From Pseudomonadota bacterium (lineage in GTDB: Bacteria > Pseudomonadota > Alphaproteobacteria > Rhizobiales > Xanthobacteraceae), in assembly GCA_046735815.1 (NCBI GenBank), contig JBKPUA010000119.1, positions 1 to 45,646 on the forward strand: 45,646 nucleotides of DNA, written 5' to 3'. A program made the position numbers and the translations under genes. Shown one piece after another: positions 15,252 through 36,274 of the stretch. Under the pieces are notes generated by a model. That model searched no databases. It had not been told where the DNA came from and saw only the letters and a list, made by a program, of their open reading frames with translations. Each line of letters opens with the position of its first letter. Position 1 is the first letter of the stretch.

Positions 15252-15815
15252 TCAACGCGTCGGCAGACGGGATGCCTTTTGCGTCAGGCGTGCAATCTCG
15301 GCGCCGTGGTTGCGAAAATAATGCTTGAACCAGAACGTGAAGGAATCCGGCTCGCGCGCCATGCGCCGTCGGATGTCGTCGAACGACAGGTGCGCCACGT
15401 CAGCGACCTCGCTTGGGTTGGGCTTGGGCTGCGATAGCAGCCGTCCGAAATAGACGTAGACGAACTCGTTCTCGTGCATGCCATTGCCGAGGTCGGCCTG
15501 ATAACGGGCGAAAAACCCGAACGACAAATCGCTGCTTAAGCCGAGCTCCTCGCCGAGTCGGCGGCGTGCCGCCGCGGCGGTGCGCTCTCCGCGCCGCGGA
15601 TGGCCGCAGCAGGAATTCGCCCACAATCCGCCCGAGTGATACTTGGCCGGGCTCCTTTGCTGCAGCACGATCCGCCCGCCCTCATCGACGATGAAGATCG
15701 AAAACGCGCGGTGCAGAAGGCCGGCGCGATGGACGGCGGTCTTGCCGCCGAAGCCGATGGCGCGATTGCGCTCGTCGACGAGGATCAACTGTTCCTCGGA
15801 CATTCTTCGGCTCAT
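15252..15815 (-). CDS. idi: isopentenyl-diphosphate delta-isomerase, type 1 (Nudix)
   Basis: Motifs seen: LHRAFSIFI, WANSCCGHP (catalytic Cys) and HENEFVYVY (catalytic Glu). The start at 15815 overlaps the upstream stop as ATGA. An alternative ATG is at 15803. Confidence 0.9.
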   Translation of the reverse strand: MSRRMSEEQLILVDERNRAIGFGGKTAVHRAGLLHRAFSIFIVDEGGRIVLQQRSPAKYHSGGLWANSCCGHPRRGERTAAAARRRLGEELGLSSDLSFGFFARYQADLGNGMHENEFVYVYFGRLLSQPKPNPSEVADVAHLSFDDIRRRMAREPDSFTFWFKHYFRNHGAEIARLTQKASRLPTR

Positions 15816-17149
15816 GGCTTGTTTATCTGCCGCAGATCCTTCACCCGCACCGCCTTGCCCTGCGAACGCGGTACCTCCCCGGGTGCCTTGAGCACGACCT
15901 CGCAGGTGACGCCGACCATGGACTTGATGTGGGTGCGCAGGTCGGCTGCCATCTTGGCGACGAACAGCTCGTCCCGCGGGGCAGGGGGCAAAAGCTCCAC
16001 CTCGATCGTAATCGCATCCATTGCCCCTTCGCGCGTGAGTACGAGCTGATAGTGCGGCGCGAGTCCGGGAAAGCCCACCAGGAAGGCTTCGACCTGCGAC
16101 GGATAGACGTTGACGCCGCGGATGATCAGCATGTCGTCGCTGCGCCCGGTCACGCGCAGCATGCGTCGGTGGGTGCGCCCGCAGGCGCAGGGCTCATCGA
16201 TCAGCCGCGTGATGTCGCGCGTGCGATAGCGCAACATCGGCAGCGCCTCCTTGGTGAGGGTGGTAAGGACAAGCTCGCCGCTCTCACCCAAGGGCAGGGG
16301 CTCGGTGGTCTCCGGATCGATCACCTCGCAGAGGAAATGATCCTCCCAGATGTGCAGCCCGTGCTGCGCCTCGTAGCATTCGCTGCCGACGCCCGGGCCG
16401 ATGATCTCGGAGAGGCCATAGGTGTCCATGGCCTTGATGCCGAATTTCGCCTCGAGGTCGCGGCGCATGGCCTCGCTCCAGGGCTCGGCCCCGAAGCAGC
16501 CGCTGCGCAGCGGCAGCGCGTGCAGATCGATGCCCATGCCCTCCGCCACTTCGGCGATGTTGAGCGCATAGGACGGCGTCGCGCCCAGGACATTGGCGCC
16601 GAAATCCTTCATCAGCATCACCTGCCGCTCGGTGGCGCCGCCCGAGACCGGCACGGTGGTCAGGCCGAGTCTCTCGGCGCCGTAGTGGAATCCGAGCCCG
16701 CCGGTGAACAGGCCGTAGCCATAGGCATTGTGGAAGATATCGCCCGGGCGCCCGCCCATGCAGGCGATCGAGCGCGCCATCAGGTTCGACCACAGATCGA
16801 GATCGGCGCGGGTGTAGCCGACCACGGTCGGCTTGCCGGTCGTGCCCGACGAGGCGTGCAGCCGCAGCAGATCCTCGCGCGGCACCGCGAACAGGCCGAA
16901 GGGGAAATTGTCGCGCAGGTCGGCTTTGACCATGAACGGCAGGCGCGCGACGTCGGCGAGCGTCTTGATTTGTTCCGGCCGCACCCCCGCAGCATCGAGC
17001 TTCTTGCGGACATGCGGGACCTTGGCGTAGGCGCGGGCGACCATCGCCCGCAGGCGCGCGAGCTGCAGCGCCGCAAGCTCGTCGCGCGCCATGGTCTCGG
17101 CCGCGCGATCGAACATGAAGCTCTCATTCCGGGGAACGGCGCGTGCCAT
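15812..17149 (-). CDS. phenylacetate-CoA ligase family (PaaK-like) aryl/acyl-CoA ligase
   Basis: Motifs seen: SSGTTGKPTVVGYT (AMP-binding), FGLTEIIG-like YGLSEIIGPG, and DMLIIRGVNVYPSQVE. The start at 17149 follows GGGGAA; an alternative ATG at 17116 is possible. Confidence 0.85.
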   Translation of the reverse strand: MARAVPRNESFMFDRAAETMARDELAALQLARLRAMVARAYAKVPHVRKKLDAAGVRPEQIKTLADVARLPFMVKADLRDNFPFGLFAVPREDLLRLHASSGTTGKPTVVGYTRADLDLWSNLMARSIACMGGRPGDIFHNAYGYGLFTGGLGFHYGAERLGLTTVPVSGGATERQVMLMKDFGANVLGATPSYALNIAEVAEGMGIDLHALPLRSGCFGAEPWSEAMRRDLEAKFGIKAMDTYGLSEIIGPGVGSECYEAQHGLHIWEDHFLCEVIDPETTEPLPLGESGELVLTTLTKEALPMLRYRTRDITRLIDEPCACGRTHRRMLRVTGRSDDMLIIRGVNVYPSQVEAFLVGFPGLAPHYQLVLTREGAMDAITIEVELLPPAPRDELFVAKMAADLRTHIKSMVGVTCEVVLKAPGEVPRSQGKAVRVKDLRQINKP

Positions 17150-17567
17150 GGGCTTCCCCTGACAGTGCGGCAAATCGCGCCGCCTTCGCCTTGACCCGCT
17201 CGGACGTCTTGCTCTTGTCGACCACGAAACGGGTATGAGTGCCGGCGCCGACCTTGTCGAGCTGGTCCTTGACCTCAGCTTCAAACGAAATCTTGCGACC
17301 GTCCACGGCGGTAACGCGCACCGCGATCTCGACGGTCATGCCGAGCAGCGTCGGTGCCAGATGCTTGATCGCGACCTCCATGCCGACCGAGTCCTCGCCC
17401 GGATCGGCATGCTCGAGAATGACTTCGCGGCACGTCTGCTCGACGTCGCGGATCATGGAGGGGGTACCGTAGGTGCGCGCCTCCTCGCCCATGAAGCCGA
17501 TGGTGCGCTCGCGGTCGATTTCGATGCGGTTGACCCGGGTGACGCCGGGGCGAAGGCTCGGCTTCAT
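17124..17567 (-). CDS. hotdog-fold thioesterase, FlK/COG5496-like
   Basis: The start reads CAT on the + strand at 17565-17567 and follows GAGGAAGGAA on the coding strand. GEDSVGMEVAIKHLAPTLLGMTVEIAVRVTAVDGRKISFEAEV...GAGTHTRFVV matches the layout of fluoroacetyl-CoA-thioesterase-like proteins, as far as I recall it. Confidence 0.7.
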   Translation of the reverse strand: MKPSLRPGVTRVNRIEIDRERTIGFMGEEARTYGTPSMIRDVEQTCREVILEHADPGEDSVGMEVAIKHLAPTLLGMTVEIAVRVTAVDGRKISFEAEVKDQLDKVGAGTHTRFVVDKSKTSERVKAKAARFAALSGEAHGTRRSPE

Positions 17568-18902: not shown

Positions 18903-20318
18903 ATGACCGCCGCCCGCGCCGCCGATGCCGCCGTGGTGGAACGCCTCGCGACCGCGGGGCTTCCCGGCAGCGATATCCGCGAGTGGCTGCAGGCGGAGCC
19001 CGGCGAGACCACCGACTTTCCCGCCGATCGCCGGAAATTCTCGGGCTATTGGCAGAGGTCGACGCGGCTCATTGGACGGCTACCGGCGAAGCCGCGGCGC
19101 AGCGAGCGCGAGCACGCCGCGGCCGATCTCATTGCCGAGCGCGCGCGCGAAGCGCGCGTGCGTTTCCTGCATCGCCACGTCGATGCCGTCTACGACGCGC
19201 TCACCGTGCGGCGCTCGCGCTTCGTGCGGGTCGAGGATCTGGTCATCCGCGCCGCGGGCGTGGCGCCGGGGCTCCTCCCGATCGCGCAGGAAATCGCCGC
19301 CGAGGACGGCACGATCCAGCGCGACAAGAGCGGACTCGAGATCGATCAGGGCCTGTTCCTGGGCGCGGTGCTCGGCAGCGCGCGCTCGGGGAATCATCTC
19401 TGCCATGCCATGCTGCTGCCGCGGCCCGAGGCGCAAGCCTTGCTGCCGCAGCTCGAGCGCGACGGCGTGGTGACGCTCGACGGCGCGTCGGTCCATCGTT
19501 CCGGCAAAGCCGCGGTGGTGACGCAGAACAATCCGCGCTTTCTCAATGCGGAGGACCAGACCTCGCTCGACGGCGCGGAGATTTGCGTCGATCTCGCGCT
19601 GCTCGACCGCGCCAGCGAGATCGCGGTCATGCGCGGCGCCGTGGTCGAGCATCCCAAATATCGCGGGCGGCGGGTGTTCGGCGCCGGCATCAATCTCACT
19701 CACCTCTATCACGGCCGCATCCCGTTCGTCTGGTACCTCCAGCGCGATCTCGGCTACGTCAACAAGATCTATCGCGGGCTTGCTCTTGCAGACGATCCGC
19801 CGCCCGACGAGTTCGGCGGCCGCACCATCGAGAAGCCGTGGATCGCGGCGGTCGAGGCCTTCGCCATCGGCGGCCATTGCCAGCTGCTGCTGGTGATGGA
19901 CTACGTGCTCGCCGAGCGCAGCGCGTTCTTGACTTTGCCAGCACGTAAAGAGGGCATCATTCCCGGCGCCGCCAACATGCGCCTGCCGCGCTTCGTCGGC
20001 GACCGCATCGCGCGCCAGGCGATCCAGTACGAGCGGCGGCTCGAATGCGACAGTCCCGAAGGCAGCATGATCTGCGACGAGCTCGTCGAGCCGGGCGCGA
20101 TGGACGATGCGATCGAACGCGTCGTCAAAGGGTTGACCAATTCCGGCGTGGTGAGCGCGGCCGGAAACCGGCGGGCGTTCCGCGTGACGCAAGAGCCGCT
20201 CGACATGTTCCGCGCCTATTTCGCGGTCTATGCGCGCGAGCAGGCCTATTGCCACTTCAGCCCGGCACTGATCGCCAATCTCGAGCGCTATTGGAACGCG
20301 CAGACTCGCAAGCCGTGA
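18903..20318 (+). CDS. crotonase-superfamily protein, DpgC-like (3,5-dihydroxyphenylacetyl-CoA 1,2-dioxygenase family)
   Basis: 471 aa with ATG 18903 after GGAG. A long helical N-domain precedes a crotonase core (NNPRFLNAED, VFGAGINLTHLYHGRIPFVWYLQRDLGYVNKIYRG, EAFAIGGHCQLLLVMDYVLA). The architecture and the GINLTHLY..WYL.RDLG segment match my recollection of DpgC. Confidence 0.65.
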   Translation: MTAARAADAAVVERLATAGLPGSDIREWLQAEPGETTDFPADRRKFSGYWQRSTRLIGRLPAKPRRSEREHAAADLIAERAREARVRFLHRHVDAVYDALTVRRSRFVRVEDLVIRAAGVAPGLLPIAQEIAAEDGTIQRDKSGLEIDQGLFLGAVLGSARSGNHLCHAMLLPRPEAQALLPQLERDGVVTLDGASVHRSGKAAVVTQNNPRFLNAEDQTSLDGAEICVDLALLDRASEIAVMRGAVVEHPKYRGRRVFGAGINLTHLYHGRIPFVWYLQRDLGYVNKIYRGLALADDPPPDEFGGRTIEKPWIAAVEAFAIGGHCQLLLVMDYVLAERSAFLTLPARKEGIIPGAANMRLPRFVGDRIARQAIQYERRLECDSPEGSMICDELVEPGAMDDAIERVVKGLTNSGVVSAAGNRRAFRVTQEPLDMFRAYFAVYAREQAYCHFSPALIANLERYWNAQTRKP

Positions 20319-20345: not shown

Positions 20346-20822
20346 TTACCGCTTGATCCGGTCAAGATTCCCCGTCATGCGCGCAATGACGCGGTGGAAG
20401 GTTGCGAGCTCGTCGCGGGCAATGCCATGCTCCGCCGCATCGGTGATGCCGCGCGCGAGCGCTAGCAGCTCGGCGCGCAGGCGCTTCGCTTTGGGCTTCA
20501 GCCACACTTGCGCGCGCCGCTTGTCCTCGTCGCTGCGCACGCGGCGGATCAGGCCGGACTTTTCCATGCTGCGCAATGCGATCACCGTAGTCGGCTCCAT
20601 GGTGCCGACGCGCGCCGAGAGCTCGCGCTGCGACAAGCCGTCCTCGCTCCATAGCACGCGCAGGAAGTACCACTGGCCGCGGGCGATGCCGTAAGGCGCG
20701 ATGCGCTTCTCGAGCAGCCGCTGGAACGCCCGATTGGCGTCGCGCACGAGGAAGCCCGAGCTTTGCGCGAGCGGAAACTCGACGTTAGCGGTCGTTCGGC
20801 GCTTGCTGCGGCGCACTGTCAC
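20346..20822 (-). CDS. MarR family transcriptional regulator
   Basis: Winged-helix segment LSQRELSARVGTMEPTTVIALRSMEKSGLIRRVRSDEDKRR. The likely start is GTG 20822, 5 nt after AAGGGGA. The track start at 20846 is a TTG without an RBS. Confidence 0.85.
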   Translation of the reverse strand: MTVRRSKRRTTANVEFPLAQSSGFLVRDANRAFQRLLEKRIAPYGIARGQWYFLRVLWSEDGLSQRELSARVGTMEPTTVIALRSMEKSGLIRRVRSDEDKRRAQVWLKPKAKRLRAELLALARGITDAAEHGIARDELATFHRVIARMTGNLDRIKR

Positions 20823-20858
20823 GCAGATCCCCTTTCCGGAGCGCAACGCTGGCCGGCG

Positions 20859-20887
20859 TTGACAAGATTTCGCTCGCGACCATAATA
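20859..20887 (+). promoter_or_regulatory. sigma70-like promoter candidate for the UbiD operon, in the MarR-UbiD divergent spacer
   Basis: TTGACA (20859-20864), then 17 nt, then ATAATA (20882-20887). The next segment is AT-rich and holds a small palindrome TAGA-AA-TCTA (ACTTAGAAATCTATGTAAT), a possible MarR operator. Confidence 0.35.
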
Positions 20888-21017
20888 CTTAGAAATCTAT
20901 GTAATGGAACCCAGGCACCCCAAACGAACGGCCGCGGCGGCCCGGACCGATTTCAGCTAGTCTCAACAGAAGCGGCGGGCGAAGCGCTCGCCCCGCCGAG
21001 ATGATGGAGCTTCACCG

Positions 21018-22601
21018 ATGCAGAAAGCATTGCGCAAGGAACGGCCCGCGGGCAGCAATGAATATCATGCCGGCGATCTGCGCACCGCCCTCGACTGGCT
21101 GCGCGAGCAGGGCGACCTGATCGAGACCGAGAAGCCGGTCGATCCCGACCTCGAGGTCACCGGCCTGCAGAAGCACATGGATGGCGGCTGCCCGGTGCTG
21201 TTCGACAACGTCAAGGGCAAGCCCAACCACCGCGTGGTGACCAATCTGTTCGGCGACATGAAGGTCATCAACAAGATGTTCGGCTGGAAGGATGACGCGG
21301 AGCGGGTGAAGAAGCTCGCCTATGCGCTCAGCCATCCGCTCAAGCCGGTCGAGATCCCGCAGGACGAGGCGCCCTGCCAGGAGCACGTGATCAAGGCGCC
21401 GAAGGACGTGAACGAATACGTCGTGCCGATCCGGCACACCACCTACGAGCCCGAGCTCACGGTGGGCTCGGCCATCCGCTGCGTCACCGGCCCGGAATTC
21501 GATGGCGGCTCCGACCTCGGCTACAACCGCATGAACTTCCGCTGGGGCAATGTCGGCACCTTCCAGATCTCGCCCGGCTCGCACATGTGGCAGGTGGTCA
21601 ACAAGTACTACAAGTCGAACGAGCCGGTGCCGATCACAATGTGCTTCGGCGTGCCGCCGGCCTGCACCTTGCTCGCGGGCGCCGGCTTCGACTACGCCGT
21701 GCTGCCGATGGGCTGCGACGAAATCGGCATCGCCGGCGCGGTGCAGGGAACGCCGGTCCGCCTGGTGAAGGCGCGCACGGTGAACGCCATGGCGCTGGCG
21801 GACGCGGAATTGGTGCTCGAAGGCTACGTCAATCCGCGCGACCGGCGCTTCGAGACCAAAGAGTCGGAGGACGCCGGCGTCCAGGGCCGCTTCCACTTTC
21901 ATCCGGAATGGGCGGGCTACATGGGCAAGGCCTACAAGGCGCCGACCTTCCATGTCACCGCCGTCACTATGCGCGACCCCAAGACCAAGCCGATCATCTA
22001 CGCGCTTGGCGTCCACATGCTCGACGACCACAACATCGACACCACGGTGCGCGAGGCGGCAATCTACGAGCTCTGCAACCGGCTGCAGCCCGGCATCGTG
22101 CAGAACGTGGTGATTCCCTACTGCATGACCGACTGGGGCGGCTGCATCATCCAGGTCAAAAAGCGCCACCAGCTCGACGAGGGCTGGCAGCGCAACTTCA
22201 TGGCCGCGGCGTTGTCCTGCTCCCAGGGCATGCGGGTCGCCATCGCGGTGAGCGAGGACGTCGATCCCTATTCCATGGACGACGTCATGTGGTGTCTCAC
22301 CACGCGCGTGAACCCTAAGATGGACATCATCAATCCGATCCCGGGCGGGCGCGGTCAGACCTTCATGCCGGCCGAGCGCATGACCGCGGGCGACAAGCAG
22401 TGGACCGCCTCCAACACCCAGTTCGAAGGCGGCATGGGCATCGATGCTACGGTGCCGTTCGGCTACGAGAGTGACTTCCTGCGCCCGGTCTACCCCGTCG
22501 ACCGGGTCAAGCCGGAGGATTTCTTCAGCAAGAAGGACATCGAGAACGCGCGCTCGCGCATGGTCGGCTGGGTGCATTCGCTGTCGCGCAGCGGAAGGTG
22601 A
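21018..22601 (+). CDS. UbiD-family (prFMN-dependent) decarboxylase
   Basis: 527 aa with ATG 21018 after GGAG. The N-terminus DLRTALDWLREQGDLIETEKPVDPDLEVTGLQKHMDGGCPVLFDNVKGKP and the overall length are typical of the UbiD family. Confidence 0.9.
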   Translation: MQKALRKERPAGSNEYHAGDLRTALDWLREQGDLIETEKPVDPDLEVTGLQKHMDGGCPVLFDNVKGKPNHRVVTNLFGDMKVINKMFGWKDDAERVKKLAYALSHPLKPVEIPQDEAPCQEHVIKAPKDVNEYVVPIRHTTYEPELTVGSAIRCVTGPEFDGGSDLGYNRMNFRWGNVGTFQISPGSHMWQVVNKYYKSNEPVPITMCFGVPPACTLLAGAGFDYAVLPMGCDEIGIAGAVQGTPVRLVKARTVNAMALADAELVLEGYVNPRDRRFETKESEDAGVQGRFHFHPEWAGYMGKAYKAPTFHVTAVTMRDPKTKPIIYALGVHMLDDHNIDTTVREAAIYELCNRLQPGIVQNVVIPYCMTDWGGCIIQVKKRHQLDEGWQRNFMAAALSCSQGMRVAIAVSEDVDPYSMDDVMWCLTTRVNPKMDIINPIPGGRGQTFMPAERMTAGDKQWTASNTQFEGGMGIDATVPFGYESDFLRPVYPVDRVKPEDFFSKKDIENARSRMVGWVHSLSRSGR

Positions 22602-22611
22602 GACTCTGTGT

Positions 22612-22698
22612 TTTGTCGTCCCCGCGCAAGCGGGGACCCATATTCCAGAGACTGCAGTGCGCGGCACGATGGGTCCCCGCGTTCGCGGGGACGACACA
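22612..22698. repeat. REP-like element, copy 1 (TGTCGTCCCCGCG...CCATATTCCAGAG...GCACGATGGG...CGCGGGGACGACA)
   Basis: The terminal 13-bp inverted repeat pairs TGTCGTCCCCGCG (22614-22626) with CGCGGGGACGACA (22685-22697). Each arm also forms a local hairpin (CCCCGC-GCAA-GCGGGG; CCCCGCG-TT-CGCGGGG). A second copy lies at 35025-35112. Confidence 0.65.
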
Positions 22699-22734
22699 CA
22701 GGGGTTAGCGGCGCCAGTACCAAAAACGGCTGCG

Positions 22735-23970
22735 ATGCTTCTTTCGGACACCTTAGTCATCGACGCGACCGAGCGGCTGGGCTGGCTCGCCGGTCGCATC
22801 CTCGCCGATCTGGGCGCCGATGTGGTCAAGCTCGAGCGGCCCGGCAGCGACCGCGGCTCTCCCGCATGGCGCGCCTTCAACGTCAACAAGCGCGTGCTCG
22901 AGCTCGATCCGGACAGCGGCGCCGACCGCGCCCGCGTCGCGCAATTGCTCGCGAGCGCCGACATCTGCCTGCTCACGCCGCAGGCCCCGCCGTTCGTTGA
23001 TGGTCTCGATCCGCAGGTGCTGCGGGCAAAACACCCGCGCCTCGTCGTCGTCGCCATCCGGCCGTTCGGCGGCGCCGGGCCGCGCAGCGGCTGGAAGGCG
23101 AGCGACATCGAGTTGATGGCAGCTGGCGGCGCTATGGCGCTCGCGGGCGAGCCCGATGGCATGCCCGTGCGCGTGAGCGAGCCGCAGTCCTACAGTTGGG
23201 CCGGCGCGCAGGCTGCCATCGGCGCGCTCATGGCGCTGTTCAAGCGCGAAGCGAGCGGCCGCGGCGATCTCGTCGATGTCTCCGCTCAGGCCTCGGTGGT
23301 GGCTGCGCTGTCGCACGCGCCGGCCTTCGTCGATCTCGTCGGCATCGAGCCCACGCGCGCCGGCGCCTTCATTACGGGCCGCTCGATCACGGGCGCGCGC
23401 TATCGCGTGTTCTGGTCGTGCCGCGACGGCTACATCAATTTCATCTTCTACGGCGGCGCCGCGGGGCGACGCACCAACGAGCAACTGGTCGCCTGGATGC
23501 GCGAGGCGGGCGCCGACCTTGGCGCGCTCGCCGCCATCGACTGGAAGACCTGGGACGCCACCAAGACCAGTCAGGCCGAGGTCGACGCCATCGAGGCGCC
23601 GGTGATGGCGTTCTTCGCCCGCCTCACCAAGCGCGAGTTCCTGATTGAGGCGCACCGCCGCGAAATGCTCGGCTATCCGGTCGCCACCGTCGCCGATATC
23701 GCGACTGATCCGCAGCTCGAAGCGCGCGGTTTCTTCCAGACCGCGCCCGGCAGCGCCGAGCGCTTCTCCGGCAGCTTCGCGGTGATCGACGGCGAGCGCC
23801 CGCCGTTGCGCCACGCCCCCGCGGCGCCGTTCCCGCGCGAGCCTTCCTCCGTTGCCGCGTCGAACATTGCGGTCGCGCGCGTCGTCCCCACATCCGAGCG
23901 CGCGCCGACCGTGACTGCCGCCACCGCGTTCGCTTCCACGCGCAGGGAGCGGGCAGGGGGCCAGCCGTGA
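22735..23970 (+). CDS. family III (CaiB/BaiF) CoA-transferase, subunit-like paralogue A
   Basis: The N-terminus from ATG 22735 is MLLSDTLVIDATERLGWLAGRILADLGADVVKLERPG. The active-site region is FGGAGPRSGWKASDIELMAAGG, with Asp present. The track start at 22444 merely translates the REP element. Confidence 0.85.
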   Translation: MLLSDTLVIDATERLGWLAGRILADLGADVVKLERPGSDRGSPAWRAFNVNKRVLELDPDSGADRARVAQLLASADICLLTPQAPPFVDGLDPQVLRAKHPRLVVVAIRPFGGAGPRSGWKASDIELMAAGGAMALAGEPDGMPVRVSEPQSYSWAGAQAAIGALMALFKREASGRGDLVDVSAQASVVAALSHAPAFVDLVGIEPTRAGAFITGRSITGARYRVFWSCRDGYINFIFYGGAAGRRTNEQLVAWMREAGADLGALAAIDWKTWDATKTSQAEVDAIEAPVMAFFARLTKREFLIEAHRREMLGYPVATVADIATDPQLEARGFFQTAPGSAERFSGSFAVIDGERPPLRHAPAAPFPREPSSVAASNIAVARVVPTSERAPTVTAATAFASTRRERAGGQP

Positions 23971-25187
23971 CCGCGGTCGCCCAGGCGCTCGCCGGCCTCA
24001 AGGTGCTGGAGTTCGGCGGCTATGCCGCCGGGCCGCATATCGGCAAGATGCTGGGCAATTTCGGCGCCCACACCATCCATGTCGAATCGAAACAGCGTCC
24101 CGACGGCTTCCGCATTCAATATCCACCGTTCAAGGACGATCGTCCCGGCTACAACCGCAGCGGCTGCTTCGCCTTCTTCAACGATTCGAAATACAGCGTC
24201 ACGGTCGATCTCAAGAAGCCCGCGGGCGTAGCGCTCGTGCGCCGCATGGCGCAATGGTGCGATCTCGTCATCGAGAACATGCGCCAGGGCATCATGGAGC
24301 GTTTGGGCCTGGGCTACGCCACGCTCGCCGAGCTCAACCCGCGCCTGGTGATGCTGTCGACCTGCAATATGGGGCAGACCGGGCCGCGCGCCGACCAGCC
24401 GGGATTTGGCTCGCAGCTCACCGCGCTCGCCGGCATGTGCGGCCTGACCGGCGTGCCGGATGGCCCACCCATGCTGCTCTACGGCCCCTATATCGACTAC
24501 ATCGCCTCCTCGCTCGGCGCCTCGGCCGCGCTCGCCGCCGTGATCCGCAGCCGCCGGAGCGGCAAGGGCGCGCTGATCGATCTGGCCCAATACGAGTGCG
24601 GCCTGACCTTCATGGGTGCGGCGCTGCAGGATTATTTCGCCCGTGGCCGCTGCGCCGAGCGCTCCGGCAACGACGATCCAGTCGCGGTGCCGCACGGCGC
24701 CTATCGCTGCGCGGACGGCGAGTGGATCGCGCTCTCGTGCTGGTCGGATGCGGATTTCGCAGCACTGGCGACGGCGATGGGCGAGGCGACGCTTGCGACC
24801 GATCCCCGTTTCGCCTCGGCGGCGGCGCGGCGGGCGAACGTCGAGGCGCTCGACGCCGCCATCACGGCATGGACCGAGCAGCATAACGCCGAGGCCGTGG
24901 CCGAAGCCCTGCAAGCGGCGGACGTTGCCGCCTATCCGGTCGTGACCATGGCGGGCCTGTTCGCGGACCCGCAGCTTGCCGCCCGCCGCCAATTCCGGGT
25001 GCGGCGCCATCCGGAGATGGGCGACCACGCTTATTGCTTCCCCGGCTTCGATCTTGCGGATGCGCCCGGCGATATCGTTGCCCCGGCGCCCTGCGTCGGC
25101 GCCGACAACGATTTCGTGTTCCGCGATCTCATCGGCCTGAGCGCCGCGGAGTACGAGTCCTATCGCCGTCAGGGCGTGTTCGATTGA
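23967..25187 (+). CDS. family III (CaiB/BaiF) CoA-transferase, subunit-like paralogue B
   Basis: GTG 23967 overlaps the upstream stop as GTGA. The N-terminus reads LKVLEFGGYAAGPHIGKMLGNFGAHTIHVE. The active-site region reads GQTGPRADQPGFGSQLTALAG, with Gly where the family Asp is expected. Confidence 0.85.
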   Translation: MTAVAQALAGLKVLEFGGYAAGPHIGKMLGNFGAHTIHVESKQRPDGFRIQYPPFKDDRPGYNRSGCFAFFNDSKYSVTVDLKKPAGVALVRRMAQWCDLVIENMRQGIMERLGLGYATLAELNPRLVMLSTCNMGQTGPRADQPGFGSQLTALAGMCGLTGVPDGPPMLLYGPYIDYIASSLGASAALAAVIRSRRSGKGALIDLAQYECGLTFMGAALQDYFARGRCAERSGNDDPVAVPHGAYRCADGEWIALSCWSDADFAALATAMGEATLATDPRFASAAARRANVEALDAAITAWTEQHNAEAVAEALQAADVAAYPVVTMAGLFADPQLAARRQFRVRRHPEMGDHAYCFPGFDLADAPGDIVAPAPCVGADNDFVFRDLIGLSAAEYESYRRQGVFD

Positions 25188-25294
25188 GGCACAACGGGAC
25201 CGCCACAGGCGGGGATGTGCTTGCAACTGAACGGATTTCGTGCCCTTGCTGTTGACGTAAAGCGGCCGATGGCGGGCCGTGGCGGAGGAACGGA

Positions 25295-25918
25295 ATGCGG
25301 CGTCTCATCATCGGCATGACCGGCTCGACCGGCGCCATCTTCGGCGTGCGGATGCTCGAGGCGCTCAAGGGTACCGACATCGAGAGCCATCTCATCATCA
25401 GCAAGTGGGCGCAGCGCACCCTCGAGCATGAGACCCGCTACACCGTTGAGCAGGTGCGCGGCCTCGCCAGCGTCGTGCACAGCCAGGGCGACATGGGGGC
25501 GTCGCTCTCGTCCGGCTCGTTCAAGACCGAAGGCATGGTGGTGATCCCGTGCTCGGTGCGCACGCTCGCTGGTATCGCCAACGGCTACGGCGAGCACCTC
25601 GTTCACCGCGCCGCCGACGTCGTGCTCAAGGAGCGGCGCAAGCTGGTGCTGGTGGTGCGCGAGACCCCGCTGTCGGAGGTGCACCTCGAGAACATGCTCA
25701 AGCTCGCGCGCATGGGAGTCTCGATCGTGCCGCCGATGCCCGCCTTCTACAACCATCCGCAGACGGTCGACGACATCGTCAACCACATCGTGGCACGCGT
25801 GCTCGATCAATTCGATATTCCCGCACCCTTCGCCAAGCGCTGGGATGGCCACATGCATACCGCCACCAAGATCGCAACGGTCGCGGGCCCAAGTCCCGCG
25901 GCGAAGAGTGGAACCTGA
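25295..25918 (+). CDS. ubiX: UbiX-family flavin prenyltransferase (prFMN synthase)
   Basis: ATG 25295 follows GGAGGAA. Motifs seen: IIGMTGSTGAIFGVRML, MVVIPCSVRTLAGIANG, LVLVVRETPLS and VPPMPAFY. Confidence 0.9.
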   Translation: MRRLIIGMTGSTGAIFGVRMLEALKGTDIESHLIISKWAQRTLEHETRYTVEQVRGLASVVHSQGDMGASLSSGSFKTEGMVVIPCSVRTLAGIANGYGEHLVHRAADVVLKERRKLVLVVRETPLSEVHLENMLKLARMGVSIVPPMPAFYNHPQTVDDIVNHIVARVLDQFDIPAPFAKRWDGHMHTATKIATVAGPSPAAKSGT

Positions 25919-26064
25919 CTGTCGGGAGAATTGTCCTAGGTTCGAAGCTTCAAGACGTGTATAGTAGCGCGATCATCGGCATGCGATGCGTGGCTCGAGA
26001 CGAACCTGGGCGCCGATGACCGAGAGACAGTAGCGCTCCCGCCTGCAGTGACAAGGAGCGCGCC

Positions 26065-26313
26065 ATGTCCAGGCCGCCTGATTCATCCATTGCTTTGAAA
26101 TATCGTCGCGACGCGGCCGCGTGCGAACGGTTCGCGGCGAACGCCAGAACAGCGGCCGATCGAGCGCTTCTGCTGCGCATGCAGCGCTCGTTGCTCGGGC
26201 GTGCCGATCACCAAGACTGGCTCGACGGCCTGCCTCCGGTTCCGCCGGCGCGACCGAACGTGCTTGCCCTGCCGAGGCGTCCAGACCGAGTCGAGTGCCA
26301 CCATCCTCGCTGA
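26065..26313 (+). CDS. small helical hypothetical protein (82 aa)
   Basis: AAGGAG lies 7 nt before ATG 26065. ALKYRRDAAACERFAANARTAADRALLLRMQRSLL resembles the small helical-hairpin proteins common in Bradyrhizobiaceae. Confidence 0.5.
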   Translation: MSRPPDSSIALKYRRDAAACERFAANARTAADRALLLRMQRSLLGRADHQDWLDGLPPVPPARPNVLALPRRPDRVECHHPR

Positions 26314-26367
26314 TTGCAAGTTGATAGTATGCAAGCAACATGGCGGCTTCGAAGGAGCGCGCGGGCG

Positions 26368-26631
26368 ATGGCACTGAGCTTTCCGAATCCAATCCGCTAT
26401 TATGATGCGACACGGCGCGCCGTGCGCTTCTGGGGACATGATAGCGCCATGGAAGCGGCGTTTTTCGTGACCGAAGACGCGTTGAAGCAGGTTCATCCCA
26501 GCATGCGTTTCGACGAGGCCGGGCTGCTCGGTGCGTTCGATGCACACCGCGACTTGATCTATGCAACCGCGGCCAAAGTCTATGCGCGTGGCCGGCGCGG
26601 CTCTTACGATCTCGTCAGCGGCGATTTCTGA
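26368..26631 (+). CDS. DUF1488-like protein
   Basis: ATG 26368. MALSFPNPIRYYDATRRAVRFWGHDSAMEAAFFVTEDALK matches my recollection of DUF1488 proteins. Confidence 0.65.
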   Translation: MALSFPNPIRYYDATRRAVRFWGHDSAMEAAFFVTEDALKQVHPSMRFDEAGLLGAFDAHRDLIYATAAKVYARGRRGSYDLVSGDF

Positions 26632-26744
26632 AGGTGCGACGGCGGCTTTCGGCCGGTCGGGTTTCGGAGCAATACGCGGCGCTGCCTGCGACCCGCTCAC
26701 TTGCCGCTTCGCCGTGTTGCAAGTTCATCCCGGGAGGCTGGTTA

Positions 26745-26906
26745 ATGATCGCGAGCAAAGAGGCCGGGAAGAAGTTGCGATCGAACAGCCGTCGATCATG
26801 GCGTGATCTCGTCTCGGCATGGGTGTGTGCGTTTCGTCCGGGACTCGATACTGCGGCCGCTCGCGGCACCATCGGCGCGAGAAACGATCGGAAGGATACG
26901 AGATGA
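26745..26906 (+). CDS. possible 53-aa basic ORF translationally coupled to the next gene
   Basis: GGGAGG lies 7 nt before ATG 26745. The stop overlaps the next start as ATGA at 26903-26906. The composition is Arg-rich and low-complexity, so coding status is doubtful. Confidence 0.25.
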   Translation: MIASKEAGKKLRSNSRRSWRDLVSAWVCAFRPGLDTAAARGTIGARNDRKDTR

Positions 26907-27160
26907 GCGATGCTCGGTTCGCAGGGGTGTTTGACGCGAACTTGCCCAACTTGGCTTCGCCGGTTCGGATCAGCTCGTTTTTCGACGCCCAGGTGTTTGT
27001 TCGGCGGTGGGCGATCAGAGACAAGGATCCGGCTGTACGCGTTCTCCTTCGCCGAATGGAAAAGGCGAACTCAATGGAAGCGATCACCAGCGCGATTGAG
27101 GAGTTGAAGCGGGAGCTCGCTCGGCGAGGGCTGCTGCCGGAAATCCGAGCGCCGATCTAG
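26903..27160 (+). CDS. small hypothetical protein (85 aa), DUF982-like layout
   Basis: ATG 26903 follows GGAAGGA. SPVRISSFFDAQVFVRRWAIRDKD...AIEELKRELARRGLL loosely recalls DUF982. This assignment is uncertain. Confidence 0.45.
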   Translation: MSDARFAGVFDANLPNLASPVRISSFFDAQVFVRRWAIRDKDPAVRVLLRRMEKANSMEAITSAIEELKRELARRGLLPEIRAPI

Positions 27161-27470
27161 AGCATGATCCCGAAAAGTGGATACCGGTTTTGGAAAAAGA
27201 TCACCAATAGTGCCCCCGAACCCGACGTTCGCACGCATTGTGCTGCAAGAGCGGTCGCTAACTTCGAGTTCAAAAGGGGCACTAGAATCGTAGAGGTGCT
27301 GGTGTCCCTCTGTCGCATCAGCGGTTGCCGCGAGGGTATGCGAACTTCGGAATCGGGACACTAGACGTGATCTCGATGCTCCGCCGGAAAGCGGGGAGTT
27401 GCGGCGGAGCAGTCTTGGATGGGCGGGACCGTCGCTCTCGATGCGGGGCGCCTGCCCCTTGTGGAGGTTC

Positions 27471-29591
<2,121 letters not shown>

Positions 29592-29659
29592 CGAGGCGGC
29601 GAGTTCATCCCGTGCTGTGCGCCGCGATTCTGTCGCGTGCGTCTCGCATCCGACCCACC

Positions 29660-29881
29660 ATTCACTGCAGCTTCGCCAAATCGCACGCCGAGCACGACGC
29701 CATTGTGAGCGCCATTCTGCAGGGCGACGCCGAAACGGCGAGCGAGGTCATGCGCACGCACGTCAACATCGTGCGAGCAGCCTCGCGCGACTACGTGCAC
29801 GAGCTCGGGCTCCTCGCTAGTGTCGGCGCCACCGACGATGTTCGCGGCAAGCACGCTCTGGGCGCTCCCACGCGGGTCTGA
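29660..29881 (+). pseudogene. remnant of the C-terminal FCD domain of a GntR-family regulator
   Basis: HAEHDAIVSAILQGDAETASEVMRTHVNIV is the typical last helix pair of FadR/FCD domains. There is no winged-helix N-domain, and the ORF abuts the rpoD stop codon. Confidence 0.4.
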
Positions 29882-29982
29882 CATGCTACCCGGAGGCGGA
29901 CTTCCTTCTGGAATCCGCTGGCAATTCGCTAGTTCTTTTGCATGATGGGCCGCCCCGCTAGTAGCGGCACGGAGAAACGCCC

Positions 29983-30386: not shown

Positions 30387-31565
30387 ATGACGCGACCGTT
30401 CGAAGGCATCCGGGTGATCGACGTCACCCATGTGCTGGCGGGGCCGTTCGCGGCCTACCAATTGGCGGTGCTGGGCGCCGACGTGATCAAGGTCGAGCAT
30501 CCCGACGAGCCCGACCAGAGCCGCAGCTCCGGCACCGACAAGGCGCTAAACCGCCGCAACATGGGCACCGCCTTTCTCACCCAAGCCTCCAACAAACGCT
30601 CGATCGCGCTGGACCTCAAGACCGAGCGCGATCGCGAAATCCTGAAGAAACTCGTCGCCACTGCCGACGTGTTCGTCGAGAACTACCGTCCGGGCGCATT
30701 CGAGGCGCTCGGCTTGGGCTACGAGGCGCTCGCCAAGATCAACCCGCGGCTGATCTACGCCTCGTTCTCGGCCTTCGGCCAGACGGGGCCGCGCGGGCGG
30801 CAAACCGCCTATGATCACGTCATCCAGGCCACCTCCGGCCTGATGGCAATGACGGGCACGAAGGACGTGCATCCCGTGAAGTTCGGCGCACCGGCGGTCG
30901 ATTACGCCACCGGCATGACCGGCGCCTTCGCCTTGGCCTCGGCGCTGTTCCAGCGCGAGCGCACCGGGCGCGGCCAGCGCATCGACATGGCGATGCTCGA
31001 CGTGGCGATGATCCTGATGAGCTCGCATCTCACCGGCTATCTGCGCAACGGGGCGCATCCTAAGCCGCACGGCAATCGCCATCCGCACGCTACCAATGGC
31101 GCGTTCGAGACCAAGGACGGGCTGGTCATGCTGGGCGCCAGCAACCTGCGCCAGCAGCGCCGCCTATGGTTGGCGCTCGGCCGTCCCGACATGGTCAAGC
31201 GCAGCAACGACGAGCGCGACGCGGATCACGACCGCGAGATCGCCGTCCTGTCGGAGATCATGCTCACGCGCACAGCCGACGAATGGGAGAAGTTCCTGCA
31301 GGCGCGCCACGTGCCGGCGGCGCGCGTGCGCACCATGGGCGAGGCGCTCGCCGACCCGCAGCTCGCGACCCGCGGCATCGTTCATCGCCACGACGGCGCC
31401 GCCGGCGTCGAGGGTGGCTTCGGCGTGCCGCTCGCCGCCTTCACCTTCGCCCACGGCGGACCGCGCATCGACCGAGCGCCGCCCGCGCTCGGCCAGCACA
31501 ACGACGAAATTTTTGCCGAGCTCGGCGTGGGCGAAAACGACGCCGTCGCAGCCGCGGCGCGCTAG
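30387..31565 (+). CDS. family III (CaiB/BaiF) CoA-transferase
   Basis: ATG 30387 follows GGGGGAGG. Motifs seen: GIRVIDVTHVLAGPFAAYQLAVLGADVIKVE and GQTGPRGRQTAYDHVIQATSGLMAMTG, with the catalytic Asp present. Confidence 0.9.
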   Translation: MTRPFEGIRVIDVTHVLAGPFAAYQLAVLGADVIKVEHPDEPDQSRSSGTDKALNRRNMGTAFLTQASNKRSIALDLKTERDREILKKLVATADVFVENYRPGAFEALGLGYEALAKINPRLIYASFSAFGQTGPRGRQTAYDHVIQATSGLMAMTGTKDVHPVKFGAPAVDYATGMTGAFALASALFQRERTGRGQRIDMAMLDVAMILMSSHLTGYLRNGAHPKPHGNRHPHATNGAFETKDGLVMLGASNLRQQRRLWLALGRPDMVKRSNDERDADHDREIAVLSEIMLTRTADEWEKFLQARHVPAARVRTMGEALADPQLATRGIVHRHDGAAGVEGGFGVPLAAFTFAHGGPRIDRAPPALGQHNDEIFAELGVGENDAVAAAAR

Positions 31566-35024: not shown

Positions 35025-35112
35025 CTGTCGTCCCCGCGCGGGCGGGGATCCATATTCCAGAGGCCGCAATTTGGGCACGATGGGCCCCCGCTTTCGCGGG
35101 GGCGACAACAGG
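35025..35112. repeat. REP-like element, copy 2 of the 22612-22698 family
   Basis: CTGTCGTCCCCGCGCGGGCGGGGATCCATATTCCAGAGGCC...GGCACGATGGGCCCCCGCTTTCGCGGGGGCGACAACAG has the same orientation and architecture as copy 1. Confidence 0.65.
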
Positions 35113-36160: not shown

Positions 36161-36197
36161 GTCGCTTCCTCTCCGTTGCTTGTTGATTCTGTAGTTT

Positions 36198-36274
36198 TGT
36201 AGGGGCGGATTGGCGCCAGCGTAATCCGCCACGTCGCCGCAGTCGGCGCCTTTTGCCTTCGGCTAACCCGCCTA
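36198..36274. repeat. REP-like element (GTAGGGGCGGATT...AATCCGCC...CCCGCCTAC family)
   Basis: GGCGGATTGGCGCCAGCGTAATCCGCC forms a hairpin. The outer ends GTAGGGGCGG and CCCGCCTAC are imperfectly inverted. The element overlaps the RraA-like stop codon. Confidence 0.5.

Follow-up and report, generated by a model that had tools for sequence, protein, structure and literature searches.

The window, a stretch of 45,646 nucleotides from the MAG of an uncultured soil Xanthobacteraceae bacterium, contains a real and intact copy of the known operon for the conversion of phthalate, which arises from plasticisers as they break down, into benzoyl-CoA. We propose that this is an operon under MarR control that probably turns o-phthalate into benzoyl-CoA in two steps. 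It has long been resident on the chromosomes of uncultured soil Alphaproteobacteria, whereas the operon has been described on the mobile elements of denitrifiers.

Organization of the operon

A MarR gene on the − strand diverges from a UbiD-family gene, two family-III CoA-transferase genes and a ubiX gene on the + strand (Table 1). This set had been recognized in an earlier reading of the DNA made without database searches (the sequence-only reading); all five ORFs are present at the coordinates and strands given there, and their family assignments agree with the Pfam and NCBIfam matches. The GTG of the second transferase (23967) overlaps the end of the first (23970) by 4 bp, again as described. 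An identical UbiD protein is found on 24 contigs, and the six places listed for it (five metagenomes and one MAG) share the gene order, so the arrangement is not an artefact of assembly.

Table 1. Positions in the window of the genes and sequence elements discussed in the text.
Feature	Coordinates	Strand	Basis
Type-1 isopentenyl-diphosphate isomerase (Idi)	15252–15803	−	NCBIfam Idi equivalogs
FlK-type hotdog thioesterase, candidate accessory gene	17124–17567	−	Pfam FlK, 114.4 bits
MarR-family repressor gene, divergent from operon	20346–20822	−	longest ORF extends to TTG 20846
Sigma-70-type promoter, TTGACA, 16-nt spacer, CATAAT	20859–20886	+	11/12 match
Near-invariant 21-nt element, directly 3′ of the −10 box	20887–20907	+	imperfect palindrome TAGAnnnTCTA
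UbiD-family phthaloyl-CoA decarboxylase (PCD) orthologue, 527 aa	21018–22601	+	PDB match, EbN1 identity
REP-like composite palindrome, two 28-nt arms, in the PCD-transferase spacer	22614–22696	+	inverted repeat, 93% complementary
Family-III CoA-transferase subunit 1 (BbsE-like), without catalytic Asp	22735–23970	+	Pfam CoA_transf_3, 165.9 bits
Family-III CoA-transferase subunit 2 (BbsF-like), catalytic, translationally coupled by GTGA	23967–25187	+	Pfam CoA_transf_3, 344.4 bits
UbiX flavin prenyltransferase, prFMN maker for PCD	25295–25918	+	NCBIfam UbiX models

The corresponding set of SPT (PhtSa/PhtSb), PCD (PhtDa) and UbiX (PhtDb) is known from denitrifying Betaproteobacteria, i.e. Aromatoleum aromaticum EbN1 (plasmid 2), Thauera chlorobenzoica 3CB-1 and Azoarcus sp. 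PA01. The window contains orthologues of all four EbN1 proteins, with identities of 72% for the PCD (over all 527 residues, the length being the same in both), 56% and 62% for subunits 1 and 2 against the first and second transferases of the EbN1 phthalate cluster, and 72% for UbiX. Both clusters have the order PCD-transferase-transferase, share the 4-bp overlap and have an idi gene close by. They differ in regulation (MarR, with a conserved operator-like site of its own, in the window; IclR in EbN1) and in the position of ubiX, which is downstream in the window and upstream in EbN1. The window cluster also lacks the TAXI-TRAP or ABC transporter, porin, DMT protein and second UbiD paralogue of EbN1. 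It is chromosomal and free of IS elements, whereas the EbN1 cluster is carried on a conjugative plasmid. Its host is an uncultured alphaproteobacterium from soil, and the genes around it look aerobic.

In the proposed mechanism the two transferase subunits would form a BbsEF-like heteromer, with the catalytic Asp177 on subunit 2, that uses succinyl-CoA as the donor to form a CoA thioester on one carboxyl group of o-phthalate, generating the labile phthaloyl-CoA. The decarboxylase, loaded with prenylated FMN, would strip the free ortho-carboxyl group at once, giving benzoyl-CoA and CO2. The prenylated flavin would be made by UbiX, and the type-1 IPP isomerase encoded nearby probably boosts the supply of its dimethylallyl donor.

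The decarboxylase

The N, rift-related and C domains of the UbiD protein are all matched in Pfam. It scores 911 bits against the solved PCD of Thauera (PDB 8pmk/8oz5/8p02), to which it is ~73% identical, compared to 170 bits against the next UbiD type, AroY. Among 109 members of the clade, 273 columns are conserved to 97% or more, and the protein deviates at none of them; it thus lies inside the PCD clade. Within a library of 50%-identity representatives its full-length matches stand at 55%, next at 40% and thereafter at no more than 37%, which marks the clade as discrete. A GGAG sequence is located 9–12 nt 5′ of the ATG.

It is conceivable in principle that the module is unrelated to phthalate, with UbiD/UbiX acting as a hydroxyarylic-acid (gallate/protocatechuate) or ubiquinone decarboxylase, and the transferases serving an unrelated acid such as benzylsuccinate, oxalate or glutarate. 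Close homologues are indeed publicly named ‘gallate decarboxylase subunit C’ or ‘4-hydroxy-3-polyprenylbenzoate decarboxylase’, and VdcC is the best NCBIfam match. However, the NCBIfam scores are far under the cut-offs (VdcC 192.8 against 650; UbiD 67 against 788), and the transferases score 79–205 bits against cut-offs of 413–750 for all named specificities, yet are 56–62% identical to the EbN1 pair. We regard a function of this kind as extremely improbable. It is effectively refuted by these comparisons and by the difference between the PCD and AroY scores.

The CoA-transferases and UbiX

Both transferases group with the EbN1 phthalate pair. They share only ~25–34% identity with each other, or with a third family-III transferase in the window. 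The best solved relative of each subunit is BbsEF (the benzylsuccinate CoA-transferase, PDB 9fn0). Subunit 1 is best matched by BbsE (9fn0_A), and like BbsE has Tyr in the column of the catalytic Asp. Asp177 of subunit 2 falls in the column of an Asp that is conserved in 4ed9, BbsF, a formyl-CoA transferase and YfdE; in YfdE the catalytic residue is Asp173. The division of Asp and Tyr between subunits is thus that of the BbsEF heteromer, although the similarity to BbsEF (113–183 bits) is far under that to the EbN1 pair, and its substrate and pathway are different.

UbiX exceeds the cut-offs of two NCBIfam UbiX models (261.5 against 188, and 249.2 against 108.9) and matches Pfam Flavoprotein. 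There is a GGAGG sequence 5′ of its ATG.

Taken with the PCD score and the four orthologue-level matches to EbN1, the BbsEF-like Asp/Tyr split supports the earlier assignment as a module of the phthaloyl-CoA decarboxylase type. The sequence-only reading held that the substrate could not be read from the DNA. We disagree; o-phthalate can be predicted with fair confidence. In the characterized system the SPT shows high specificity for o-phthalate, and 3-fluoro-phthaloyl-CoA is accepted by PCD at only 16% (reviews PMC6644310, PMC13040137). At 56–62% identity the transferases in the window could nevertheless have another acceptor or donor specificity.

The spacer between the PCD and transferase genes contains a REP-like palindrome, which is a lineage-specific insertion; the spacer is just 8–15 nt in four related loci, and the palindrome recurs at 35029–35050. 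Its predicted RNA fold has a free energy of −75.3 kcal/mol (z = −6.65) and no T-run; the palindrome is not a terminator. No terminator-like sites were predicted on the + strand between the genes of the operon. With the short spacer of the relatives, this suggests that the four genes are co-transcribed.

The promoter and a candidate operator

The MarR protein matches Pfam PF01047 at 40.6 bits (cut-off 24.6), with both MarR and MarR_2 above cut-off. Public gene calls start it at 20822 (158 aa) rather than at TTG 20846. In ~57 of 80 related loci the PCD gene has a divergent MarR orthologue (63–88% identity) upstream of it.

The intergenic region had been described as AT-rich, with a TTGACA-N17-ATAATA box. 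That site is real, but its spacing and second hexamer are corrected to TTGACA-N16-CATAAT (20859–20864 and 20881–20886). The spacer as a whole is 60.5% GC, while the 52-nt core containing the promoter and operator-like element is 36.5% GC. There is one promoter-like site in 6.1 kb, against 0.8 ± 0.9 expected by chance. We take the promoter to be real not from this count but because both hexamers are kept in ~42 of the 80 related loci while the sequence between them varies.

The 21-nt element ACTTAGAAATCTATGTAATGG that abuts the −10 box is single-copy in the window. Its core CTTAGNNNTCTATGYAAT is present in exactly one copy in 56 of the 80 species loci, always just 5′ of the PCD gene, and was not found in the IclR-controlled cluster of EbN1. 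Taken together, the promoter and the operator-like element recur in 56 of 80 related species. The element is probably the operator of MarR, which would bind there and repress the promoter until released, probably by an aromatic acid or a CoA-ester ligand.

Inheritance and the native substrate

Across 28 species the identity at four-fold degenerate sites falls together for PCD (59–81%) and for purC, the PQQ dehydrogenase and the PaaK-like gene (50–77%). Codon usage in the module is native (GC3 0.82–0.91, like the flanking genes), and no transposase or mobile-element genes were found near it. The parallel divergence of synonymous sites and flanks, with the absence of mobile-element genes, suggests that the module has been vertically inherited over species-level time. 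The chromosomal setting, which the sequence-only reading had considered unexpected, is the one that this module normally has across a large radiation of uncultured Xanthobacteraceae from soil.

A module that has diverged in step with its flanks would be far older than industrial phthalate, and its native substrate therefore need not be o-phthalate. The same chemistry could act on a natural relative, candidates being a phthalate with ring substituents, a hetero-aryl 1,2-dicarboxylate and phthalate released when polycyclic aromatics are degraded; industrial o-phthalate would then be only a fortuitous substrate. The breadth of the PCD clade is consistent with this; its members, from Alphaproteobacteria, Binatia, Vicinamibacteria, Zixibacteria and Burkholderiales MAGs, share at least 72% identity, and the plasmid-borne betaproteobacterial enzymes are nested within it. 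Relatives also carry a binding protein of the tricarboxylate-transporter type (TctC/Bug). In 56 of 81 alphaproteobacterial loci (80 relatives plus the window) an AMP-forming ligase adjoins PCD in place of the transferase pair; it is of dicarboxylate type, its nearest solved relatives being oxalate-CoA and malonyl-CoA ligases. These proteins indicate a dicarboxylate, but not which. On the other hand, the UbiD protein differs from the characterized enzymes at no clade-conserved residue, the substrate range of the characterized transferase and PCD is narrow, and o-phthalate has natural sources, so that great age does not exclude it. On balance a different native substrate seems unlikely, and we favour o-phthalate.

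The same logic of activation followed by decarboxylation by a PCD-clade enzyme is found in the sulfate reducer Desulfosarcina cetonica, which uses an ATP-dependent phthalate-CoA ligase where the window has the transferases; the alphaproteobacterial loci with a ligase beside PCD resemble it in this respect. Syntrophorhabdus aromaticivorans likewise decarboxylates an aryl-dicarboxyl-CoA with a UbiD-type enzyme (isophthalate-CoA ligase and isophthaloyl-CoA decarboxylase), but the decarboxylase of the window belongs to the ortho-phthaloyl clade. The activating enzyme of S. aromaticivorans, the isophthalate-CoA ligase IPCL, is PaaK-like but only 29–44% identical to phenylacetate-CoA ligases (PMC9516798), whereas the PaaK-like gene 4 kb upstream of the module in the window is nearly canonical (620 bits, the PaaK cut-off being 646).

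Fate of benzoyl-CoA and accessory genes

The window contains two PQQ dehydrogenases, c-type cytochromes and a homologue of the O2-dependent DpgC (333 bits to DpgC 2np9; 421 bits in NCBIfam, where the cut-off is 530), and no box, bcr or bad genes, all in agreement with the earlier description. A catalase is also among the aerobic-looking genes. No benzoyl-CoA reductase or oxygenase genes (bcr, box) were found in the 64 kb searched of the 86-kb contig, and there is no orthologue of either phthalate transporter of EbN1 (TAXI-TRAP or ABC system). Both absences were weighed against the phthalate reading, as was the reported O2 sensitivity of PCD in such aerobic-looking surroundings.

Denitrifiers reportedly have an aerobic hybrid phthalate pathway, in which SPT and PCD feed the ‘box’ pathway of benzoyl-CoA oxygenase. 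That pathway offers a precedent for PCD in O2-respiring cells, the physiology suggested by the surroundings of the module, although the 64 kb of contig contains no box genes. A precedent for the aerobic or hybrid route suggested in the sequence-only reading has been published (Ebenau-Jehle et al. 2020, AEM 86:e00498-20, as cited in PMC9516798).

Alternatively, the first two steps could be followed by hydrolysis of benzoyl-CoA to benzoate by the FlK-type thioesterase, with degradation by ordinary oxygenases, i.e. a shunt of activation, transformation and release like that of 4-chlorobenzoate dehalogenation. The thioesterase, whose solved relatives are fluoroacetyl-CoA thioesterases, remains a neighbour of Idi and of the MarR-PCD pair in two subclades whose surroundings otherwise differ, and is a possible accessory gene. 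Eight relatives have a catechol-1,2-dioxygenase-like gene at most a few genes away from the module, and both the lack of box and bcr genes in 64 kb and the genes that point to an aerobic host would fit. But the thioesterase overlaps the end of the near-canonical PaaK gene and may simply belong to phenylacetate metabolism as a PaaI-like partner, hydrolysis would waste the thioester, and the published hybrid route goes through the box pathway; moreover the search for box and bcr genes covered 64 kb of a single 86-kb contig of the genome. We consider such a shunt distinctly improbable, rather more so than a different native substrate.

The Idi protein exceeds the cut-offs of two NCBIfam equivalogs (155.2 against 127, and 116.2 against 105.8) and is 45% identical to the idi product beside the EbN1 phthalate cluster. 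It is likely to supply the prenyl donor for UbiX. We note that its association with the module, which adds to the sequence-only reading, is seen near the PCD gene in 22 of the 81 loci, in three different arrangements.

Identity of the decarboxylase and structure of the module

The UbiD-family protein of the window falls in the clade of phthaloyl-CoA decarboxylase (PCD), the enzyme that converts phthaloyl-CoA into benzoyl-CoA in a reaction dependent on prFMN, K+ and Fe2+. It has the full UbiD architecture, with PF20695, PF01977 and PF20696 (the N, rift-related and C domains) all above cut-off. Residues 19-527 score 911 bits against the solved Thauera enzyme (PDB 8pmk, 8oz5 and 8p02, 'Phthaloyl-CoA decarboxylase'), and the next type, AroY, scores 170 bits; assignment as AroY or gallate decarboxylase was rejected on this difference, and assignment as the ubiquinone UbiD was also rejected. 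Identity is about 73% to the PCD of Thauera chlorobenzoica (trimmed alignment) and 72% to the 527-aa UbiD protein from plasmid 2 of Aromatoleum aromaticum EbN1; the latter two are 95% identical to each other. A neighbour-joining tree rooted on paralogues places the window protein inside the PCD clade, so the acyl-CoA-acting affiliation proposed from the sequence alone is upheld.

The active site was assessed by conservation within the clade, and not by comparison with a published list of residues: among 109 sequences 273 of the 527 columns are at least 97% conserved, and the window protein has the conserved residue at every one. The corresponding residues of paralogous UbiD proteins differ at 190 of the 273, and the clade-specific residues retained include the FHFHPEW motif where the canonical UbiD acid/base loop lies. 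Among 1.84 billion representatives (50%-identity library) the top full-length hit has 55% identity (633 bits), followed by one of 40% (375 bits) and others of at most 37%, a fall indicating that the clade is discrete.

The decarboxylase gene is accompanied by those for MarR, two family-III CoA-transferases and UbiX. The sequence-only reading had taken this set for a phthaloyl-CoA-decarboxylase-type module, and the analysis supports it: the UbiD protein is of the PCD clade, the transferases are of the phthalate type and UbiX is present. All five ORFs were found where it had placed them, and the family of each protein was confirmed with Pfam and NCBIfam profiles. The GTG start of the second transferase does overlap the stop of the first. 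The MarR gene diverges on the minus strand as proposed, but the TTG start at 20846 is not that of the public gene calls. The identical UbiD protein occurs on 24 contigs, and the six places listed, five of them in metagenomes and one in a MAG, agree in gene order, which rules out an assembly artefact. The window lies on contig JBKPNS010000120.1 (MAG GCA_046732755.1). What is known here is the four enzymes, in an order shared with the characterised system, and taken alone the window is an orthologue of that system. What is new is a different regulator, different accessory genes, the host lineage and the genomic setting.

Features of the module and its surroundings
Feature	Position	Strand	Remarks
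Idi, type-1 isopentenyl-diphosphate isomerase ('NUDIX' gene)	15252-15803		NF002995 155.2 (cut-off 127); TIGR02150 116.2 (105.8)
Near-canonical phenylacetate-CoA ligase (PaaK-like)	15812-17149	minus	620 bits; PaaK cut-off 646
FlK-type hotdog thioesterase	17124-17567	minus	next to Idi and MarR-PCD in two subclades
DpgC homologue, full-length	18903-20318	plus	333 bits against DpgC 2np9; 421 bits, cut-off 530
MarR	20346-20846	minus	longest ORF; public gene calls start at 20822 (158 aa)
Promoter-like site	20859-20864, 20881-20886		TTGACA, 16 nt, CATAAT
UbiD/PCD	21018-22601	plus	527 aa; ORF list, Pfam/NCBIfam
REP-like palindrome (GTCCCCGCGnnnGCGGGGAC)	22614-22696; 35029-35050		double copy, operon spacer; single copy, other intergenic region
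Family-III CoA-transferase subunit 1	22735-23970	plus	start set by alignment with EbN1 homologue; longest ORF from 22444
Family-III CoA-transferase subunit 2	23967-25187	plus	GTG start; 4-bp GTGA overlap with subunit 1 stop
UbiX	25295-25918	plus	ORF list, Pfam/NCBIfam
TctC-type gene, sole one in window	35120-36232		10 kb away; weak match
Carboxylesterase, BD-FAE/Abhydrolase_3 type	39297-40145	plus	13 kb downstream of module
Crotonase	44112-44909	minus	ECH Pfam domains only; adjoins branched-chain-type ABC transporter

A REP-like double palindrome with a very stable fold (-75 kcal/mol, z = -6.65) lies in the 133 nt that separate the PCD gene from that of the first transferase. It lacks a T-run, and in four relatives this spacer is just 8-15 nt long; the element is therefore a lineage-specific insertion within the operon and not a terminator. 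Relatives have other palindromes or none at this spot.

The CoA-transferase pair and UbiX

Both transferases, placed directly after PCD, contain PF02515. The EbN1 plasmid set comprises UbiX, PCD and CoA-transferases of 395 and 406 aa whose genes overlap by 4 bp, and the window proteins match this pair one for one with 56% and 62% identity. Identities are only 25-34% when the subunits are cross-compared or set against a third family-III transferase of the window (30387-31565), so that the pair groups with the phthalate transferases as anticipated. All named NCBIfam transferase specificities score far below cut-off for these two proteins.

In subunit 2 it is Asp177 that falls in the column of the Asp conserved in 4ed9, BbsF, a formyl-CoA transferase and YfdE (in YfdE, Asp173 is the catalytic residue). 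Subunit 1 has Tyr in the catalytic-Asp column, like BbsE, its best solved match. From these residues the pair looks like a heteromer of the BbsEF (benzylsuccinate CoA-transferase) type with one catalytic subunit, and the phthalate CoA-transferase has reportedly been described in the same terms. Identification as the benzylsuccinate system itself was rejected. UbiX scores above both of its cut-offs (NF004685, 261.5 against 188; TIGR00421, 249.2 against 108.9) and is 72% identical to UbiX of EbN1.

An operator-like site upstream of the PCD gene

A TTGACA-N17-ATAATA box in an AT-rich spacer had been proposed between the MarR and PCD genes. TTGACA is present, but is better read as followed by 16 nt and CATAAT, and AT-richness is confined to a 52-nt core (36.5% GC), the spacer as a whole having 60.5% GC. 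One promoter-like site in 6 kb is the chance expectation, so the count alone is not significant; it is conservation in relatives that makes the site credible. The ORFs of the related loci were called by third-position GC and clustered by blastp; about 57 of the 80 have a divergent MarR gene ahead of that for PCD. In relatives anchored on the promoter the hexamers are conserved and the spacer between them is variable, and a near-invariant ACTTAGAAATCTATGYAATGG follows immediately. In 56 of the 80 species loci the core CTTAGNNNTCTATGYAAT is present exactly once, each time a short way before the PCD gene; it is absent from the EbN1 loci. Judged by this conservation, ACTTAGAAATCTATGYAATGG/CTTAGNNNTCTATGYAAT is a strong phylogenetic footprint of a candidate operator overlapping the transcription start, to which MarR would bind. 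Searched against solved structures, MarR matches generic MarR proteins only, which do not indicate a ligand. The conserved site is a candidate sensor element for phthalate-type compounds.

Distribution and the two versions of the module

Scanning a single genome for each species gave 537 stretches with matches to PCD-derived peptides that also passed tblastn. The best 80 of these are 85-95% identical and come almost entirely from uncultured Xanthobacteraceae or Alphaproteobacteria MAGs of soil surveys. A wider protein search returned more than 1,161 clusters at E <= 1e-100, and homologues at least 74% identical are present in MAGs labelled Binatia, Vicinamibacteria, Zixibacteria, Burkholderiales and others. 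Looking up the PCD cluster for cultured hosts yielded MAG names only, e.g. Defluviicoccus. The literature found to mention phthaloyl-CoA does not cover Alphaproteobacteria.

Members of the clade appear in public sources as gallate decarboxylase subunit C, UbiD family decarboxylase or 4-hydroxy-3-polyprenylbenzoate decarboxylase. None of the PCD-clade homologues carries PCD as its name (the homologues of the window protein, P0001-P0166, are all named otherwise), and NCBIfam has no PCD model. Public annotation thus misnames these proteins as gallate or ubiquinone decarboxylases, and, being systematic, this would keep the pathway out of sight when metagenomes are surveyed.

The transferase pair is found in 15 of the 81 loci (the window and 14 of its 80 relatives, three of those being cut by contig ends), so that the window has a minority, 'denitrifier-like' architecture. 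In 56 of the 81 its place is taken by an AMP-forming ligase of ~517 aa, encoded directly behind PCD on the other strand (L012, L014, L017, L018, L020, L024, L026, L027, L029-L032 and L035-L086; e.g. L036:12358-13911, minus). The nearest solved relatives of this ligase are oxalate-CoA ligase and malonyl-CoA synthetase, i.e. dicarboxylate activators. The ligase version is present in all subclades of the PCD tree, while the transferase version is limited to the subclade with the DpgC-like gene, and is interleaved there with the ligase version. ATP-dependent activation has been reported in sulfate reducers (PMC13040137), to which the alphaproteobacterial ligase version is a parallel. The natural swap of transferase and ligase offers a ready comparison for the capture of labile phthaloyl-CoA.

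We note that locus L013 (CAWHBF010000001.1), labelled 'uncultured Acidobacteriota bacterium', has the order from PQQ dehydrogenase to UbiX seen in the Xanthobacteraceae loci, with proteins 80-92% identical to theirs. This contig is probably mis-binned or mislabelled.

Age and mobility

The composition and GC3 values of the module match its surroundings, and no transposase or integrase was found among the annotated genes in 64 kb of the contig. Between the window and 28 other species the identity of the PCD gene at four-fold degenerate sites is 59-81%, and it varies in parallel with the values for purC, the PQQ dehydrogenase and the PaaK-like gene (50-77%). This parallel divergence is the pattern expected of vertical descent with the chromosome, and not of recent transfer. 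By contrast, the phthaloyl-CoA route has been framed as a recently evolved xenobiotic pathway, described in a few denitrifiers, sulfate reducers and sediment Gammaproteobacteria and often with transposases adjacent (PMC8269228, PMC9516798, PMC13040137). The PCDs of Thauera and EbN1 group with a Burkholderiales MAG inside a large environmental clade (neighbour-joining, rooted on paralogues). A simple distance tree of this kind does not settle the direction of transfer.

In many uncultured soil Alphaproteobacteria the phthaloyl-CoA enzymes are stably encoded on the chromosome and have diverged in step with housekeeping genes, and the capacity of soil for phthalate removal via benzoyl-CoA may much exceed estimates from surveys of known degraders. 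For specialists the value lies in the family-wide context, that is the wide soil distribution, vertical inheritance, MarR operator-like site, interchangeable activators and misannotation. We tentatively raise a broader possibility, in which our confidence is low: rather than a recent invention against man-made plasticisers, the PCD module might be an ancient trait that uncultured soil bacteria, a very large group, carry on the chromosome and pass on vertically, with a MarR regulon of its own and activators that can replace each other (transferase pair or dicarboxylate ligase). The plasmid and transposon clusters of denitrifiers might then have been recruited from this reservoir. In these aerobes the module may act as an activate-decarboxylate-release shunt, a conserved thioesterase freeing benzoate for ordinary oxygenase pathways.

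Substrate, uptake and the fate of benzoyl-CoA

In the proposed pathway the transferase heteromer would convert o-phthalate and succinyl-CoA into phthaloyl-CoA, which PCD would immediately decarboxylate to benzoyl-CoA. UbiX, aided by the isomerase Idi, would supply prFMN, and MarR would gate the promoter. The substrate is probably o-phthalate, given identities of 56-73% to the characterised proteins and the conservation of all clade-invariant residues. The characterised transferase is highly specific for o-phthalate, and PCD takes 3-fluoro-phthaloyl-CoA at only 16%, in a reaction that is irreversible (PMC6644310, PMC13040137). A natural analogue of o-phthalate, undergoing the same chemistry, is an unlikely native substrate; the question of which natural compound selected for PCD is now testable.

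The accessory genes of EbN1 (TAXI-TRAP, ABC transporter, IclR, porin, DMT) have no orthologues in the window or the 80 related loci. In 33 relatives, though not in the window, a periplasmic binding protein of the TctC/Bug family is encoded directly beside MarR-PCD (among L035-L086; e.g. L044:6566-7558 and L071:11547-12605, both minus), and may take part in the uptake of an aromatic dicarboxylate. The binding protein between DpgC and MarR in relatives is just 24% identical to its EbN1 counterpart.

Genes for benzoyl-CoA reductase (bcr/bad/bam), boxABC or benzoate dioxygenase were not found in positions 1-63,639 of the 86,243-nt contig, extending the absence of reductase and box genes that the sequence-only reading had reported for the window. 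The PQQ dehydrogenases (two), c-type cytochromes and O2-dependent DpgC homologue on which it had also remarked, together with a catalase, give the neighbourhood an aerobic look. For denitrifiers, a hybrid route via box, reportedly described by Ebenau-Jehle et al. in 2020, provides a precedent. Release of benzoate from benzoyl-CoA by a thioesterase is less likely; a gene of this kind, the FlK-type thioesterase, stays beside Idi and MarR-PCD in two subclades whose other neighbours differ.

Neighbouring genes

Idi may supply the prenyl donor for UbiX. Its gene lies near that for PCD in 22 of the 81 loci (the 80 relatives and the window), in three different arrangements, and idi is likewise beside the phthalate cluster in EbN1, where the protein is 45% identical to that of the window. 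The PaaK-like ligase, FlK thioesterase and DpgC homologue flank purC, and this set is kept in the 20-26 closest relatives. One could speculate that together they take arylacetyl-CoA to arylglyoxylate with O2. The PaaK-like ligase was rejected as an isophthalate-type activator, being too near canonical PaaK.

In relatives a glyoxalase-fold gene comes directly after UbiX, together with a third family-III CoA-transferase. The window has about 4 kb (25919-29982) between these and UbiX, occupied by a DUF1488 gene, an ORF of 85 aa, rpoD (the housekeeping sigma factor) and a fragment with an FCD domain. Within 10 kb of the module, rpoD is absent from all 80 species representatives.

To the eye the crotonase resembles PaaG; no other paa genes were found within 10 kb to its right. 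The carboxylesterase could in principle hydrolyse aromatic esters.

A second UbiD paralogue of ~509 aa, absent from the window, is encoded just upstream of UbiX in 26 relatives (L007, L012, L021, L033, L039, L054 and others; e.g. L054:13323-14852, plus). It is ~26% identical to PCD, and 64% identical to the product of the third UbiD gene in the EbN1 phthalate region (L087:13889-15403).
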